DNA from: Mycobacteriales bacterium
GTDB lineage: Bacteria > Actinomycetota > Actinomycetes > JAFAQI01
Assembly: GCA_036267875.1 (NCBI GenBank)
Contig: DATAVE010000113.1
Span: 48,881 to 112,880, forward strand
Length of the DNA: 64,000 nt
Reading direction: 5' to 3'
In this document: positions 4,586 to 19,064 of the stretch, piece by piece
Numbering within the stretch: position 1 is the stretch's first letter
How the letters are laid out: each line of letters starts with the position of its first letter
The notes under the pieces: generated by a model
Told to the model about the DNA's origin: nothing
The model's database searches: none
The model's input: the letters and a program-made list of their open reading frames with translations, nothing else
Translations under genes and position numbers: made by a program

Positions 4586-5614
4586 TCAGGCGTTCGTTGT
4601 GCCCGTAAGAACCTCTGCGCTATTCGGCATCTTCGAGCGGGATGAGTCGATGAGCACGGGGGAGCCGGGGACGTGCTCGAGCGGCCCGGCAGCGCCGTCG
4701 CTGTCAGGGTCGAACGAGTGGAGAAGCGCGGCCGCGAGTGCATCAGGTCGGTCGTTCTGCAGGTAGTGGCCAGCATCCGGCACGAGATAGATGCGGTTGC
4801 GGCCGGGCTTGAGCATCAGGAAGTCGTCCCAGGAGTGCAGCGGTACGCGGGGAGGGGCGACTGTGTCGTTCATGCCCCAGATCACGGTTGTGGGCACGTC
4901 CGTCGTACCGAGCGCCTCGAGCCACTCGGTCTCGTGTTCGGACCGCTCGACGAGGTACTGCACGGTCTCGGGCAGCACCTGCATACCGTCGGCGTGGGCG
5001 AACGTCGCGGCGAGCGCGGCGATCTCGGGATCCGCCCCATCCCGAGGCGGTGAGAACGTCGCCTGCCCCATCCCGACCGCGAGCATGTCCGCGGTCACCA
5101 CCTCGAGCACGGAGGCAGCGGTTTCGGGGTTGAGGATCAGTCGCTGGAAGTCGGTGAGGTTCGACAGCGGCAGGAAGATGTTGCCGTTCGTGAGGACCAG
5201 GTGATCGACATGCGTCCTGGTCTTGCCGGCGACATCGTTGAGCGTGTGAAGCAGCGAGACGCTCGTACCTCTGTCGTGGGAGACCACGATGGCCGAGCCG
5301 ATGCCGAGGATCTCCGCGAGGTAGTGGTCGAGCAGGTGCGCGTCGCGCCCGAGGCTGTAGCCCCAGCCCTTCGGTTTGTCGGAGAACCCGTATCCCGGGA
5401 AGTCGAGCGCGCAGATGTAGTAGCGGTCGCTGAGCAGATCGACCAGCGCCTGCCAGTCGGCGCTGCAGGTCGGGAAGCCGTGCACCAGCAACAGCGGGGG
5501 ATTGGCCAGATCTCCGGCCTCGACGTGAAACACCTCGACCGGAGCGACGTCATCGCCCGGTGTCCATGAGAAGTAGGAGCCAAGATTGCGCCACTGCGCC
5601 GCGAGGTCGGTCAC
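4586..5614 (-). CDS. Alpha/beta hydrolase (epoxide hydrolase / haloalkane dehalogenase-like)
   Basis: LLLVHGFPTCSADW oxyanion/HGxP motif, VSHDRG nucleophile elbow (Asp nucleophile type), and a C-terminal GHYLQNDRP His motif. Confidence 0.8.
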   Translation of the reverse strand: MTDLAAQWRNLGSYFSWTPGDDVAPVEVFHVEAGDLANPPLLLVHGFPTCSADWQALVDLLSDRYYICALDFPGYGFSDKPKGWGYSLGRDAHLLDHYLAEILGIGSAIVVSHDRGTSVSLLHTLNDVAGKTRTHVDHLVLTNGNIFLPLSNLTDFQRLILNPETAASVLEVVTADMLAVGMGQATFSPPRDGADPEIAALAATFAHADGMQVLPETVQYLVERSEHETEWLEALGTTDVPTTVIWGMNDTVAPPRVPLHSWDDFLMLKPGRNRIYLVPDAGHYLQNDRPDALAAALLHSFDPDSDGAAGPLEHVPGSPVLIDSSRSKMPNSAEVLTGTTNA

Positions 5615-5663
5615 CTGGGCAGCGTATGAGGAGGCGGGGTTGCTCGCGACTGGCTACGGGCAG

Positions 5664-6749
5664 ATGTTGGAGATGGATACCTGGACCCTCCGCTCGTACG
5701 GTGACGTGCCCGCGCCCTCGTCGTACCAGCCTCCCGCGCTGCCGTCAGCCCGCGGCCCGGTGACCGAGTGGCTGCTCGACGTACTGGTCCAGCCGCCGCA
5801 CGACTGCGGTAGGCCGCCGGCGGTCGCCGACGACCCGATCACCGGCGAGGACAGCGCGCTAGCGCTCTATCTCATGTACGAGCTGCACTACCGCGGGCTC
5901 GCGGGCGTGGTCGACGAGTGGGAGTGGGAGCCGTCGTTGCTCGCCGCCCGACGAACGTTCGAGGCGGCGTTCCTCGATGCGCTCGGCCAGCAGGTGCCGA
6001 TGCCTCCGGTGCCGATCGACATCGCAGACGCCTTGCGCGCCCGGACCGATTCCGGCTCTGATGACGGGCCGTCGTTGTCCAACTATTGCGAGTTCGAAGC
6101 CTCTGAGACCCAGCTCCGGGAGGTGTGTGTCCACCGCAGCGCTTGGCAGCTGAAGGAGGCCGATCCGCACACCTGGGCCCTGCCGAGGCTCGGTGGTCGC
6201 CCGAAGGCCGCATTGGCAAAGATTCAAGGGGGCGAGTACGGCGATGGCGAGGAGCGCGACGTCCATCAGAATCTCTTTGCGCTGACGTTGTCGCTGCTCG
6301 ATCTCGATCCGCAGTACGGCGCGTATCTGGACTACCTACCTGGTGTGACACTCGCGTCCGTCAATCTCGTATCGGTGTTTGGTCTGCATCGGCGGTGGGT
6401 GGCGGCGTTGGTCGGGCATCTTGCCGCCTTTGAGATGAGCTCGGTCACTCCGATGGCTGCCTACTCTGCCGGGTTGCGGCGGCTCGGCTACTCACAGGAC
6501 GCGTGTCACTTCTTCGACACCCACGTCGTCGCCGACGCCCACCATCAGCAGCTCGCCGCGGACGAGCTGGCCGCGGGCCTGGTCGAGCAGCAACCTCGTG
6601 CCGGTGCCGAGATCTTGTGGGGCGCCGACTGCATGGGCTGGATCGAGGGCCAGCTCAGCGACCATGTGCTTGGCGCGTGGCAGGACCATCGCTCGTCATT
6701 GCGTCGTCCGCTCGCGACAACCTTTCTCAGGTCGGCGGCGTTCTCTTAG
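5664..6749 (+). CDS. Iron-containing redox enzyme family protein (heme-oxygenase-like diiron oxidase/oxygenase fold, HDO)
   Basis: All-helical protein with paired E...H / E..H candidate metal ligands (LMYELHYRG, EYGDGEERDVHQ, HLAAFEMSS, HVVADAHHQ) typical of the pfam14518-like family. Start chosen at M27 (5664), because the track start at 5586 would overlap the divergent hydrolase. Confidence 0.6.
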   Translation: MLEMDTWTLRSYGDVPAPSSYQPPALPSARGPVTEWLLDVLVQPPHDCGRPPAVADDPITGEDSALALYLMYELHYRGLAGVVDEWEWEPSLLAARRTFEAAFLDALGQQVPMPPVPIDIADALRARTDSGSDDGPSLSNYCEFEASETQLREVCVHRSAWQLKEADPHTWALPRLGGRPKAALAKIQGGEYGDGEERDVHQNLFALTLSLLDLDPQYGAYLDYLPGVTLASVNLVSVFGLHRRWVAALVGHLAAFEMSSVTPMAAYSAGLRRLGYSQDACHFFDTHVVADAHHQQLAADELAAGLVEQQPRAGAEILWGADCMGWIEGQLSDHVLGAWQDHRSSLRRPLATTFLRSAAFS

Positions 6750-6762
6750 GTGTGACACCAGA

Positions 6763-7284
6763 GTGCTGTCGGTGATCCCGACGCCGGAGCGACGGGCGTT
6801 CGAGGCCTTCGTCGGTGAGTCCTCCACCCGCCTCGTTCGTACGGCGTATCTGCTGTGCGGCGATCGAGGGCACGCCGAGGACCTGGTCCAGACCGCGTTG
6901 CTGCGTACCGCTCGTCATTGGCGCGCCGCACGGCGGCAGCCCCACGCCTATGCGCGTGCCGTCGTCGTCAACCTCGCGAAGGATCGCTGGCGCGCGCTCG
7001 ACCGGCGGGTGCCCGAGGTCTCGCTGGCTGCGTCGGTCGACCTTGCTACGGCTTGTGATGGGACGGCCGACCTGCTCGACCGGCATGCCATGGTCGCAGC
7101 GTTCGCCGGGCTTCCCGAGGGACAGCGAACCGTGCTGGTGCTCCGCTTCTTCGAAGACCTCTCGGTCGAGGACACCGCCAAGGCGATCGGCTGCACGACC
7201 GGAACCGTCAAGTCTCAGACCTCGCGAGCGCTCGTCGCGCTCCGCGCAATCCTCGACACCAAGGAGACCTCGCATGCTCACTGA
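6763..7284 (+). CDS. ECF (sigma-70 family) RNA polymerase sigma factor
   Basis: Region 2 (HAEDLVQTALLRTARHWR) and region 4 HTH (LPEGQRTVLVLRFFEDLSVEDTAKAIGCTTGTVKSQTSRALVALR). GTG start at 6763, 13 nt after the HDO stop. The track ORF from 6598 overlaps the upstream gene. Confidence 0.85.
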   Translation: MLSVIPTPERRAFEAFVGESSTRLVRTAYLLCGDRGHAEDLVQTALLRTARHWRAARRQPHAYARAVVVNLAKDRWRALDRRVPEVSLAASVDLATACDGTADLLDRHAMVAAFAGLPEGQRTVLVLRFFEDLSVEDTAKAIGCTTGTVKSQTSRALVALRAILDTKETSHAH

Positions 7285-7843
7285 TGACCAACTGACCCGA
7301 GAGCTTGCCGACGTGTTCCACGCGACGACCCACGGCTTGGCCTACGACGGGCGAGTGCCGAAGGGTCCACGTACGCCGATGTACGTCGCGCCGGCTGTCG
7401 CGGTGGTCGGCGCCGCGGCGCTGGCGGTCGTCGCGACTTCGGGCGGTGACCGCCCTGGCCAAATGCAGGTCCACAGCGGCTTGCAGCCGTACGTCGCCGG
7501 GCCGCAGCACACCGCGCACCCGCACCTGAAGCTCGTCACCCGCAAGATTCGGCTCGCTGGATTCACGATGAGCTACACCGAGCCCTCTGTCGACCACCCG
7601 ATGGTCGCGACTGTCATCACCTCGGTGCCCGCATCGGCCGAGTCGGTTCAAGGTGACGACGCGACGACGCAGTACTGGATCGGCGTGGACCCGTCGACCG
7701 GATGGGAGACCGGCTACGTCGTGACCGCGGACGGCTTCAAGATGTCGATCGGCTCGGCCGACGCGACTCGCGATGAGCTGCTCGCGATGTTCCAGGGTGC
7801 CGAGCCGCAGATGGTCCCGCTGGTGGGTGCGAGCAACAGCTAG
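7274..7843 (+). CDS. Putative anti-sigma factor / single-pass membrane protein (no zinc-binding anti-sigma motif)
   Basis: ATG at 7274 preceded by AAGGAG, overlapping the sigma stop by 11 nt. It has a short cytoplasmic N-terminus, one TM helix (VAPAVAVVGAAALAVVATS) and an extracytoplasmic domain of about 140 aa. This is the typical sigma/anti-sigma arrangement. Confidence 0.6.
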   Translation: MLTDDQLTRELADVFHATTHGLAYDGRVPKGPRTPMYVAPAVAVVGAAALAVVATSGGDRPGQMQVHSGLQPYVAGPQHTAHPHLKLVTRKIRLAGFTMSYTEPSVDHPMVATVITSVPASAESVQGDDATTQYWIGVDPSTGWETGYVVTADGFKMSIGSADATRDELLAMFQGAEPQMVPLVGASNS

Positions 7844-7940
7844 TTGTCAAGATCGAATCTGGTTCTGCGGACAAGATTTCTGGTTTATTTGCAACGAATC
7901 CGGCCCCGATTCTGTCGTAGGTCGGTCGTAGGTTCCCTAC

Positions 7941-9077
7941 ATGCGGGACACGGCGATCGATCTGCTCGATGCAGCGATCGATGCCCTCGCGGCTGAGGAT
8001 CGTCACGGCCTGCCCGACCGTGTTCTGCTGGATCGCCACGCCCAGCTGTTGCGAGCGAAGCGCCGTCTGGATGGGATCGGCGCCGAAGACCTGCAGATCA
8101 TCGACCGTCGCCACGCCACCACAGCGGAGTGCGGTCGGTCGACGCGTGGTTGGTTGGTCGAGGAGCAGCTGCTTTCACCTGGCGAGGCGGTGTCGAAGCT
8201 GCGGGTTGCCCGCGCCGGGAGCACCCGCCCGGCCGTGATCGAGGCGATGCGCGACGGGGAAATCTCTCATTCCCACGCCACCGCGATCATGAGCTTCCTA
8301 CTCAAGCTCGACGCGGACACCCGCGAGGTCGCGGAGCGGGAGCTGGTCAAGGTCGCGAAGGTCAGCGACCCGGGAACGTTGAACCGGACGCTTCGTGAGA
8401 TGACCGACCGGCTGTGCCTGGATGAGACCGCCGAGGAACGCGCGGCGCGTCAGTACGAAGGCCGCTGGCTGAAGCTGACTGAGACCTTCCAGGGAATGAC
8501 CCGGTTCGAAGCGATGCGCGGCCCGGTCCAATCCGCAGTCGTTCGGACCGCGCTCACCTCGCTGTCCGGCAAGAACGGTGAGCTCGATGATCGGCACATC
8601 GGGAAGCGTCGCGCCGACGCGCTCGTCGAGCTCGCCCGGATGGCCATGAACGCCGGTGGGCTTCCCGAGACAGCAGGTGAGCCGACCCAGTGCGTGGTCG
8701 CGACCGATCTCGAGGACCTCAGGCGTGACCTTCAGCCCGGTGACGCCACGCGGTCGATCGTCCTTGCCGCGACTGCCTCACCGGGCACAGGTTGAGCACT
8801 CGCGGCGCAACACTAAGGAGCGCCCGAGCGCAACGAGCCCGGGTACGCAACGCCCGTGGGCGCGACCCGTTGCGCCGTGAGCGCTCAGCCGGCGTCCTCG
8901 CGACACCATGAAGACCACTGGGCCAGAGGCGGCCGTACCGATCTCGCCAACGGCATCTACCTGTGCGCCCACCACCACTGTGCGCCCACCACACGACCTG
9001 GGCCTTCACTCGCAACAAAGCCGGCCAAGTCGAGATCCGAAGAACCTAGAGCCAAGCAAGCACTGACTCGCGCCTGA
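7941..9077 (+). pseudogene. Decayed DUF222/HNH endonuclease (13E12-repeat family) gene
   Basis: The N-terminal DUF222-like 284-aa ORF ends at a TGA (8793-8795), followed by an in-frame TAA at 8814. In the same frame downstream is a degenerate HNH motif (HWARGGRTDLANGIYLCAHHH) that has lost its first Cys pair. The central part looks deleted. Confidence 0.65.
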
Positions 9078-9355
9078 TGCTGATCTACAACCGCGCAGCG
9101 AAGTACGTGCTGGCGATTTGCGCTGCCCTTCTGCAGCCACACTGACGCCAGAGCGTCGATGCATCTTTCGCCGACGGGCTCATAGGTGAAGCCGAGCGGG
9201 CGTACTCGGCCAGAATCCGACCGAGGGCCTTTCGGCGGACCAACCGCATAGCGCGATCGTCCGCTGAGCTCCAGGCCGAGCATTAGGTGCCGCTGCACGC
9301 CGGTGCCGGCACGACCGTGGGCCCACGTCGGTCAGCCGCACTAGGTCGACTGTGA

Positions 9356-18168: not shown

Positions 18169-19064
18169 GACGACCCGCTGATGACGCAGCGGAAGCCGAT
18201 GTGGCTCGTCGTACTGCGCACCGCCTGACCCTGTCGAGCCGGTGGCCGGTAGCGCTGACAGTACGACGGCGCGCACAGATGCGAGCCGCCCTTGATCGTG
18301 CGCCGGTCGCCCTCGGTGAGCGTCGACCCGCCGCAGCATGGATTGATGGACTCGGCGCCGGCGGAGTCGTCGTGGGTGTCGGTCCACGGTGAGGTGGTCC
18401 ACTCCCAGGCGTTGCCGATCATGTCGACCAAGCCCCAGGCGTTCGCTGGGTAGGACCCGATCGGAGAGGTGAACGGGTGGCGCGAATCGTCGTTGCGCCA
18501 AGGGAACTCGCCGAGCCAGATGTTCGCCATCGCCCGGCCGCGAGGCCGGAGCTCCTCGCCCCAGGAGTACGTCGATGTCGGGCTACCGGCGCGCGCTGCG
18601 TACTCCCACTGCTGCTCGGTCGGCAGCGACTTGCCGGCCCAGTCGGCGTAGGCCGTCGCGTCTTCGAAGGAGACATGGACAACCGGGTGTCGGTCCAGTC
18701 CGTCCAGCGTGCTGCTGGGGCCGCGCGGATGACGCCAGTCCGCTCCCGGCACCCATCGCCACCAGCGTTGCCAGTCGTCGAGCGGCACTGGTCCGTCGCT
18801 CTGCATGAAGACCAACGACCCTGCGACCAGGTCGGCGGCGCTTGCCCCTGGAAAGTCCTGCGGATCGGGTGACTTCTCGGCAGTCGTGACCCAGCCCGTC
18901 GCCTTCACGAATCTGCGGAACTCCGCGTTCGTCACTGGGTGCTCATCGATCAAGAACGTGTCCACGCTGATCGGGTGAGCCGGCCGCTCCTCCGGGTAGG
19001 CAGTGTCGCTGCCCATGACGAACTCCCCGCCGGGGACAGCGATCATGCCCTTCACCAGGCGCAC
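18165..19064 (-). CDS. Formylglycine-generating enzyme (FGE/SUMF1) family protein
   Basis: FGE-sulfatase domain hallmarks: PVTNAEF, RLPTEAEWEYAARAG-like LPTEQQWEYAARAG, GNAWEWT, and a C-terminal Cys pair region. Confidence 0.85.
   Translation of the reverse strand: MRLVKGMIAVPGGEFVMGSDTAYPEERPAHPISVDTFLIDEHPVTNAEFRRFVKATGWVTTAEKSPDPQDFPGASAADLVAGSLVFMQSDGPVPLDDWQRWWRWVPGADWRHPRGPSSTLDGLDRHPVVHVSFEDATAYADWAGKSLPTEQQWEYAARAGSPTSTYSWGEELRPRGRAMANIWLGEFPWRNDDSRHPFTSPIGSYPANAWGLVDMIGNAWEWTTSPWTDTHDDSAGAESINPCCGGSTLTEGDRRTIKGGSHLCAPSYCQRYRPPARQGQAVRSTTSHIGFRCVISGSS

Follow-up and report, generated by a model that had tools for sequence, protein, structure and literature searches.

An inactivated DUF222-HNH gene of the 13E12 kind with a putative DNA-damage promoter in an uncultured Mycobacteriales genome

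A 64,000-nt stretch of DNA (the window) from the metagenome-assembled genome (MAG) of an uncultured Mycobacteriales bacterium contains, at positions 7845 to about 9068, what we judge with a probability of roughly 85% to be an inactivated copy of a multi-copy actinobacterial unit, namely a promoter leader of about 95 nt followed by a DUF222-HNH nuclease gene of about 392 codons, of the 13E12 (REP13E12) kind. This copy belongs to a family of such genes, carries two separate lesions, retains a promoter motif conserved among the family leaders, shares a quasi-palindromic tract with another disrupted copy and has diverged little from its closest relative. The window copy is an ordinary decayed DUF222-HNH gene of the known 13E12 family; the only unexpected elements are the shared tract and a tenfold contrast in synonymous divergence (dS), which rest on two comparisons and one comparison, respectively. 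The window served as the reference for comparison loci (L001-L022) and proteins (P0001 and following), and all of the sequences compared come from metagenome assemblies, in which repeated genes are prone to misassembly.

The decayed gene, its lesions and the extent of the unit

The open reading frame (ORF) at 7941-8795 on the forward strand encodes 284 amino acids (aa) and matches the Pfam DUF222 model (PF02720) with 86.5 bits (E=2.6e-24, profile positions 6-250 of 306) against a gathering cut-off of 24.4 bits, which bears out its earlier identification as a DUF222 N-terminal region. Codons 1-272 (7941-8756, forward strand) are still homologous to the family, whose own profile is matched to about position 275, and the last 12 codons with the TGA are supplied by a replacement tract described below. 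The intact relative P0005 matches DUF222 profile positions 6-305, and positions 251-306, which find no match in the window, correspond to the replaced centre of the gene.

The 284-aa product has 79 homologues at E<1e-5, nearly all from uncultured Mycobacteriales and mostly 385-397 aa in length. Intact relatives comprise about 392 aa and conserve a tail of the form HHW..HHT.W...RN..G.VEIRRT, and about 8 of 51 close relatives appear truncated or frameshifted. An alignment of 24 members holds C330, C335, C342, H345, H346, W350, C365, H368, H369 and H373 invariant, a set with the appearance of an HNH-like zinc and catalytic pattern. Ratios of nonsynonymous to synonymous substitution rates (dN/dS) of 0.19-0.29 between intact pairs indicate purifying selection, and intact members probably act as nucleases.

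A search of plasmids with P0005 (tblastn) returned relatives at 26-33% identity that are annotated as '13E12 repeat family protein' or 'HNH endonuclease signature motif containing protein', among them a '13E12 repeat family protein' (32.8% identity, E=2e-8); no relatives were found in the viral contig collection. DUF222 is a Pfam domain linked with REP13E12 (PMC10589994). These annotations of the closest annotated relatives, taken with the intact relatives of about 392 aa, support the original prediction that a DUF222/HNH gene of the 13E12-repeat kind has decayed here. AlphaFold models P0005 with confidence for residues 1-160 only, a part that forms a helical bundle. Run with this model against the PDB, Foldseek returned nothing below E=0.1; matches from a profile search of PDB sequences were all marginal and fell on the HNH domain of IscB (E of about 0.5), and a search of NCBIfam gave none.

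Downstream of the ORF and in its frame, positions 8904-8978 (forward strand) encode a remnant of the HNH core (HHEDHWARGGRTDLANGIYLCAHHH) that matches family profile positions 344-371 at 37.6 bits and is about 92% identical in DNA to the closest copy, at locus L001; within it, HWARGGRTDLANGIYLCAHHH is encoded at 8916-8978. The remnant reaches 19.0 bits on the Pfam HNH model (PF01844), below the gathering cut-off of 21.4 bits. It keeps HH, N and C..HHH and lacks C330, C335 and C342, just as a missing first Cys pair and linker had been predicted, and the residues after H369 are frameshifted; the full set of catalytic and zinc residues (Cys pair, HH, N and C..HH..H) is not present.

The first lesion is a 147-nt tract (8757-8903, forward strand) that cannot be aligned to the canonical centre of the gene. 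It holds a TGA (8793-8795) and a TAA (8814-8816), and reading the sequence confirms that both share the frame of the ORF. The tract stands for 216 nt of the family, at profile positions of about 276 to 343, including the invariant C330, C335 and C342; in L001, L002 and L003 these 216 nt lie between the TRS codons and the HH codons. The family profile is matched in the ORF frame up to about position 275 and again from 344 to 371, in a shifted frame from 373 to 393, and in no frame from 276 to 343. What had been described as a plain deletion is instead a replacement by 147 unrelated nt, partly shared with the disrupted copy at locus L021.

The second lesion, a frameshift near 8980, had been overlooked. 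Where relatives read TGGGTCACC the window has TGTG-CGCC, a loss of 1 nt, and where relatives read CAC CAC TGG GTC ACC CAC CAC the window has CACCACTGTG-CGCCCACCAC. Repeat searches and alignments place here an exact 15-nt direct repeat of CTGTGCGCCCACCAC with a period of 17 (8961-8992, forward strand), which marks the frameshift: two substitutions and the 1-nt loss, all within 7 nt, produce an exact copy of the preceding CTGTGCGCCCACCAC, which suggests that templated slippage on a near-repeat made the frameshift. The last 20 codons (HHTTWAFTRNKAGQVEIRRT) and their TAG (8987-9049, forward strand) are found in the shifted frame by tblastn with P0002 and P0005 and match family profile positions 373-393 at 21.9 bits. 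L001 has a different frameshift a few bases away, namely +2 nt in GCGCGCACAC. No nuclease could be made from the window copy, and its intact promoter could yield at most a 284-aa DUF222-only protein.

As judged from homology, the conserved unit runs from 7845 to about 9068 and includes the 95-nt leader. L003 and L012, copies set among unrelated genes, become homologous to the window at 7845/7846, just 1-2 nt past the TAG of the upstream gene (7841-7843). On the right it stops between 9048 and 9066 (blastn extends to 9066 with L012 and to 9053 with L002), and the alignment with relatives diverges after GCAAGCAC, leaving a short conserved 3' flank at approximately 9050-9068 (forward strand) as the right end. 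The end of the element, formerly put at about 9077, is thus corrected to about 9068, since the last 20 codons and stop are frame-shifted. The adjoining DNA at 9069-9388 lies outside the unit and yielded no match to the fetched loci and no recognisable ORF, RNA family, promoter or terminator. Within it, 9078-9355 had been described as free of any convincing ORF, and its ORFs indeed have no Pfam match and no similarity to any fetched locus; its assignment to the element fails, homology having ended by about 9068. ORFs of 9006-9453 contain no Pfam domains, and the Rfam 15 covariance models, run over 7700-9500 on both strands at E up to 1, match neither the leader nor the hairpin-forming tract. 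A methyltransferase gene is called from 9389 in L010, a contig that also covers this region.

A DNA-damage promoter motif in the leader

The leader (7845-7940, forward strand) is delimited by the start of homology and by its GC profile. The AT-richer flank described in the original prediction is real, its GC content falling to 0.52 at 7800-7899 and at 7850-7949 (100-nt windows) from 0.64-0.75 in the DNA to its left and right, and it is part of the repeated unit, since homology with other copies starts at 7845/7846. Its conservation at least equals that of the coding sequence.

At 7913-7934 on the forward strand the leader carries TGTCGT-N10-TAGGTT, a motif of the PafBC/RecA-NDp type, with a -26 element at 7913-7918 and a -10 element at 7929-7934. 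The -10 box ends 6 nt upstream of the ATG at 7941, giving an architecture of TGTC-N12-TAGGTT without a -35 box; no sigma-70 -35/-10 promoter or terminator was found in 7700-9500. Six aligned family leaders keep the TGTC and the TAG..T unchanged and at a constant distance of 12 nt, with a variable spacer between them, and a seventh leader, that of L021, shows the same arrangement. The 240 kb of non-redundant fetched DNA contain nine matches to the motif, seven of them directly upstream of family copies; the motif is present in all seven copies whose 5' flank was fetched.

The in vivo PafBC motif is tGTCgg(N10)tA(N3)T, in which a '-26 element' replaces the -35 box (PMC8635444). The window motif fits this consensus with exact spacing, lacks a -35 box, and has its -10 element placed at -12 to -7; it differs in that the second G of 'gg' is T. 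The GTC triplet and -10 box of such actinobacterial promoters are kept in 7/7 family leaders. The leader is best read as a PafBC/RecA-NDp-type DNA-damage promoter that probably depends on PafBC, and in the subfamily of the window copy, where 6-7 nt separate the -10 box from the ATG, a leaderless mRNA is predicted.

The tandem 9-mer reported just before the start codon, GTCGTAGGT(CG)GTCGTAGGT, is present at 7914-7933 on the forward strand and overlaps the promoter motif. As a repeat it is not beyond chance in 64 kb; it takes its significance from the conserved motif that it overlies and is best read as parts of the -26 and -10 elements. It is partly kept in relatives, as GTCGTA...GTCGTAGG in L003, L013 and L021, and is absent in L015 and L017.

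L015 and L017 carry perfect SOS boxes, TCGAACATCAGTTCGA and TCGAACATACGTTCGA, respectively, matching the consensus TCGAAC(N4)GTTCGA (PMC3381160). They lie at approximately 2968-2983 of L015 and 2977-2992 of L017, between the -10 box and the Shine-Dalgarno sequence and GTG start; none was found near the window copy. From these LexA boxes the family appears to have two promoter layouts, one PafBC-type only with a predicted leaderless start, the other PafBC-type plus a LexA box with a leader. In intact copies, transcription would proceed from a promoter without a -35 box, in which a TGTC '-26 element' stands 12 nt upstream of a TAGGTT -10 box; PafBC, a DNA-damage activator, would recognise it, and some relatives would add control through a perfect LexA SOS box. 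Given this PafBC-type architecture, the encoded nuclease would be made after DNA damage.

Two further motifs deserve mention. An exact PafBC-type match, TGTCGGCGCAGGGTCGTAGCGT, occurs at 9173-9194 of L018 (minus strand), about 160 nt upstream of a major facilitator superfamily (MFS) transporter gene, and is one of only two matches in the 240 kb that do not precede a DUF222-HNH gene. In the window leader, a DnaA-box-like 9-mer (TTGTCCGCA) lies at 7866-7874 on the minus strand. Read on the minus strand, the aligned position matches TTATCCACA perfectly in three leaders (L013, L015 and L017) and departs from it by one nucleotide in three others (the window, L003 and L012); the 9-mer stands about 45 nt upstream of the TGTC in 6/7 leaders and is not conserved in L021. 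DnaA-box-like matches with at most one mismatch number three in the window against eight expected by chance. We treat the 9-mer as a conserved motif and a putative DnaA site, a candidate only.

A quasi-palindromic tract shared by two disrupted copies

Comparison of retrieved proteins with the replacement tract (tblastn) led to L021, where reading through a further disrupted copy yields P0020. L021 aligns to window 8799-9033, lies in a different genome and at a different locus, and belongs to a different subfamily from the window copy; L022, from another data set, carries the same sequence. Identity between the window and L021 is 60% across 8700-8756, disappears across 8757-8802, rises to 77% (76/99) across 8803-8903 and is 68.5% in the HNH and C-terminal parts, such that the flanking coding sequence, at 60-68%, falls below the shared tract. 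The shared piece contains ACTAAGGAG, the source of the in-frame TAA. Beyond the tract, the best matches to the window copy are the canonical L001 (92-96%) and L002; for the HNH part of L021 the best match is L015.

Most of the tract forms a quasi-palindrome at 8783-8897 (no strand assigned), in which arms at 8783-8811 and 8869-8897 are 79% complementary and enclose a 57-nt spacer. The arms in L021 measure 32 nt, are 94% complementary and enclose a spacer of the same 57 nt. A consensus fold has 31 pairs, five of them with compensatory double changes and none broken. As single-stranded DNA the L021 tract folds with z=-9.53 relative to shuffled controls, the window tract with a modest z=-1.86. 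The right junction is the same in both copies, just before the HH codons.

Global and local alignments of the tract to the canonical centre on both strands are not significant (z<1.3), and searches of the window and of every locus by blastn and tblastx give nothing beyond chance. One weak reverse-strand match, of window 8846-8897 to L015 3944-3994, covers 35/52 positions and is reached by 0/200 shuffles; it was one of 16 tests and is not reproduced by L021. A smaller inverted repeat (8735-8753 and 8767-8786, 16/19 positions) bridges canonical coding sequence and the start of the tract. The left 46 nt of the tract look partly copied from the opposite strand of 8735-8753 (p of about 0.04), which is suggestive only.

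Three readings of the tract's origin compete: gene conversion between paralogues, a palindromic element that targets the gene, and the scar of an integrated element. Rickettsia palindromic elements and bacterial miniature inverted-repeat transposable elements (MITEs) are palindromic insertion elements found inside genes, and the tract could be a small mobile element of that manner, specific to DUF222-HNH genes, that entered the window copy and L021 independently. The resemblance lies in a hairpin-forming tract of about 115 nt within a protein-coding gene, common to two copies of different subfamilies and better conserved than their coding flanks, with long inverted arms, the same spacer, compensatory changes, an identical right junction and, in L021, a strong hairpin. 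The likeness ends where such elements would add sequence: here host sequence is replaced (147 nt take the place of 216 nt in the window copy, and about 188 that of about 200 in L021), stops are introduced, and target-site duplications are not seen. Nor do the two copies agree in their outer arms, as they would in the terminal repeats of a transposon. Just two instances are known. A covariance model of the tract, run over the window and about 200 kb of related DNA, matches nothing beyond the sequences used to build it; a composite peptide query in six frames finds P0020 alone, and exact 19- and 20-mers of the tract are absent from viral contigs. We regard a mobile element as unlikely.

More doubtful again is a broader proposal, namely that the quasi-palindromic tract of about 115 nt represents an undescribed module that takes over the middles of DUF222-HNH genes, moves between paralogues and genomes, and neutralises damage-induced nuclease genes; such a module may be a small palindromic element or a conversion cassette.

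Of the three readings of the tract's origin, the most economical is gene conversion, in which a pseudogene tract would be passed between paralogues and kept palindromic by hairpin-templated correction, since gene conversion of REP13E12 is reported in M. tuberculosis (PMC13061034). Copies scattered through genomes would recombine with one another, and the tract may have arrived in the window copy by this route. There, the 216 nt that code for the last part of DUF222 and for the zinc-binding Cys residues have given way to the 147-nt quasi-palindromic tract with its two in-frame stops, and one nucleotide was lost in the HNH motif, apparently through slippage on the nearby near-repeat.

Inactivation is not the only way to view what remains, as the 284-aa ORF might have been kept as a truncated gene that still works, perhaps by regulating or inhibiting intact paralogues. 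Its promoter motif is intact, its frame is open over 272 family codons, dN/dS relative to L001 is 0.46 and hence below 1, and L021 likewise keeps an open N-terminal frame and a promoter. That ratio nevertheless exceeds those of the intact pairs given above and rests on 27 changes. The ORF terminates in 12 codons of replacement sequence, and its match to DUF222 breaks off at position 250 of 306. The closest relative, L001, has an independent and different lesion, a +2 frameshift, a pattern that looks like random decay. We consider a functional truncated product quite improbable.

The reading as an inactivated 13E12-type copy under a damage promoter must nevertheless be set against several observations that weigh against it. 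The dN/dS between window and L001 (0.46, 27 substitutions) leaves room for residual constraint on the DUF222 ORF. TGTC-N12-TANNNT has a single match in the 64-kb window, and about one match per 64 kb is expected by chance; the promoter reading therefore depends on the position and conservation of the motif. The intact P0005 also falls below the HNH cut-off, with 13.4 bits on PF01844, a domain carried only by more distant DUF222 relatives (P0053-P0059 and others, in a precomputed table), so that the nuclease assignment rests on the motif pattern and those distant relatives. The connection to the M. tuberculosis 13E12 genes, finally, runs by way of Pfam DUF222, the plasmid annotations at 26-33% identity and the literature.

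Exchange between copies and the 13E12 family

The clade has several dispersed copies per genome, the window itself holding one. P0020 and P0021 come from two different contigs of assembly GCA_035547515.1, which thus contains at least two copies, and sample 3300036819 contains three variants. Family copies occupy seven different neighbourhoods, among them acyl-CoA dehydrogenase and P450 genes (L003, L012), rhodanese genes (L013), AMP-binding and DLH genes (L015), CoA-transferase genes (L017), and radical-SAM and lepA genes (L021).

In L001 the element copy is followed by a methyltransferase gene and then by the same secreted-protein gene and the same FMO gene as in the window. The element is 95% identical to L001 in DNA (8175-8756), against about 82% for all shared flanks, and its dS is 0.083 against 0.834 for the neighbouring gene, a roughly tenfold contrast that must be read with the caveat that the L001 contig begins inside the repeat and may be a chimeric assembly. 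From this contrast, the element sequence would have been exchanged or acquired long after the host lineages split.

DNA immediately to the right of the element is non-homologous between window and L001. The same slot holds unrelated S-adenosylmethionine (SAM)-dependent methyltransferase genes (window 9389-10183, L001 1002-1652), one of the Methyltransf_12/23 type and the other TPMT-like; a third lies elsewhere in L019, and the three are mutually unrelated. L018 (88% identity) and L019, which share the upstream block and were both obtained through homologues of the anti-sigma protein, have the anti-sigma gene followed by unrelated genes; L004 (80%), which shares the downstream block and came from a genome scan with the secreted protein, has that protein's gene preceded by other genes. 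With different genes at the junction in L018, L019 and L004, the element sits at a synteny breakpoint. Unrelated methyltransferases beside 95%-identical elements, with flanks at 82%, prompt a proposal related to the module described above and likewise doubtful, namely that DUF222-HNH units act as portable homology anchors for swapping neighbouring genes.

The original prediction described a relic of an inserted homing-type element. The decayed DUF222-HNH gene stands; the homing part is not supported, for want of an intron or intein context, a conserved target or a clean empty site. The corresponding alternative, namely that a true homing endonuclease gene once entered a specific site between the sigma/anti-sigma pair and the methyltransferase and left a relic there, can point to a free-standing HNH gene with sharp homology boundaries and to a 95%-identical copy at the equivalent position of L001 despite flanks of 82%. 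Free-standing HNH homing endonucleases of phages and mobile introns are likewise small, self-contained HNH genes with their own promoters and a selfish-looking distribution. The window copy differs from them in having no intron, intein or phage context and no relatives in viral contigs. Right of the element the DNA and the methyltransferase genes differ between window and L001, other copies adjoin unrelated genes with no common target visible, and instead of presence/absence polymorphism at one conserved target, relatives show unrelated genes at the junction. Comparison of orthologous loci, which had been suggested as a way to find an intact copy or an empty site, produced no clean empty allele among relatives sharing either flank, and metagenome scans for an empty site with the anti-sigma protein and with the family alignment returned nothing. 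True homing is very unlikely here.

Whether the stops are real was also checked. L010 and L011, contigs that come from two further samples, match the window without gaps at 99.98% identity over 5001-11795 (about 6.5 kb), have no mismatch to it inside 7844-9400 and reproduce both stops; P0001, identical to the 284-aa product, is called on two other contigs. With both contigs identical across the whole region, the lesions are not one-off sequencing or assembly errors. An error in a truly intact gene, conceivable in metagenome assemblies where repeats misassemble easily and where the L001 contig ends inside the gene, is in practice already refuted by these contigs, by a main lesion (147 for 216 nt) that is hardly a point error, and by a diverged version of the tract in L021 and L022, two further data sets.

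Other features of the locus lie apart from the element. The ECF sigma factor gene upstream of the element has lost about 218 nt (window 7001-7219) in L018, where no sigma gene is called and an anti-sigma-like gene remains. Window 10237-11763 encodes a predicted secreted protein of 508 aa without a Pfam domain, which is 75-83% identical to homologues in Mycobacteriales, 53-56% in Acidimicrobiales/Actinomycetota MAGs and 26-29% in Acidobacteriota. Window 14390-18182 (about 3.8 kb) has no counterpart in L001 or L004, in which the flanking blocks are almost adjacent; it may be another insertion or a variable segment.

The inactivated copy takes its place beside the 13E12 (REP13E12) members of M. 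tuberculosis (for example Rv0336, Rv0515, Rv1128c, Rv1148c, Rv1945, Rv2100 and Rv3466), with which the window family shares the combination of DUF222 with an HNH motif, the dispersal of several copies through each genome and DNA-damage promoters with an SOS box and/or RecA-NDp. For the window family, damage responsiveness is read from promoter sequence only (RecA-NDp/PafBC motif in 7/7 leaders, SOS boxes in L015 and L017). In M. tuberculosis, six 13E12 genes are bound by LexA, and others (Rv1128c, Rv1148c, Rv1945 and Rv3466) are induced by DNA damage and carry RecA_NDp (PMC3381160). REP13E12 contains a putative prophage attachment site, and some loci are listed as gene pairs, namely Rv0094c/Rv0095c, Rv1587c/Rv1588c and Rv3466/Rv3467 (PMC13061034). 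The window copy differs in coming from an uncultured Mycobacteriales MAG, in being dead, in having its nearest annotated 13E12-type proteins only at 26-33% identity, and in a PafBC-type motif without SOS box and with a predicted leaderless start in its subfamily. The M. tuberculosis gene pairs are presumably split 13E12 copies.

The two systems also seem alike in recombination or gene conversion between copies and in their position at rearrangement breakpoints. REP13E12 loci in M. tuberculosis undergo frequent gene conversion and inversions (PMC13061034, PMC13157036), and inversion breakpoints there are marked by 13E12 genes (PMC13157036). The position of the window element at a synteny breakpoint matches these reports and lends no support to site-specific homing.

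For annotation, the public 284-aa 'DUF222 domain-containing protein' is to be read as a truncated relic and its AT-rich flank as its promoter. The regulatory logic is already known for the 13E12 family and is here extended, on sequence grounds, to an uncultured clade. If correct, a PafBC-type promoter, sometimes with a LexA box, before every copy examined would extend the link between DNA damage and 13E12 genes beyond M. tuberculosis, and its conservation would support expression of 13E12-type genes when the chromosome is broken. The very low divergence of the element from L001, together with a hairpin-forming tract common to different genomes, would further mean that copies exchange sequence far faster than their host genes diverge, which would fit the reports from M. 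tuberculosis of these repeats as hotspots of gene conversion and inversion.

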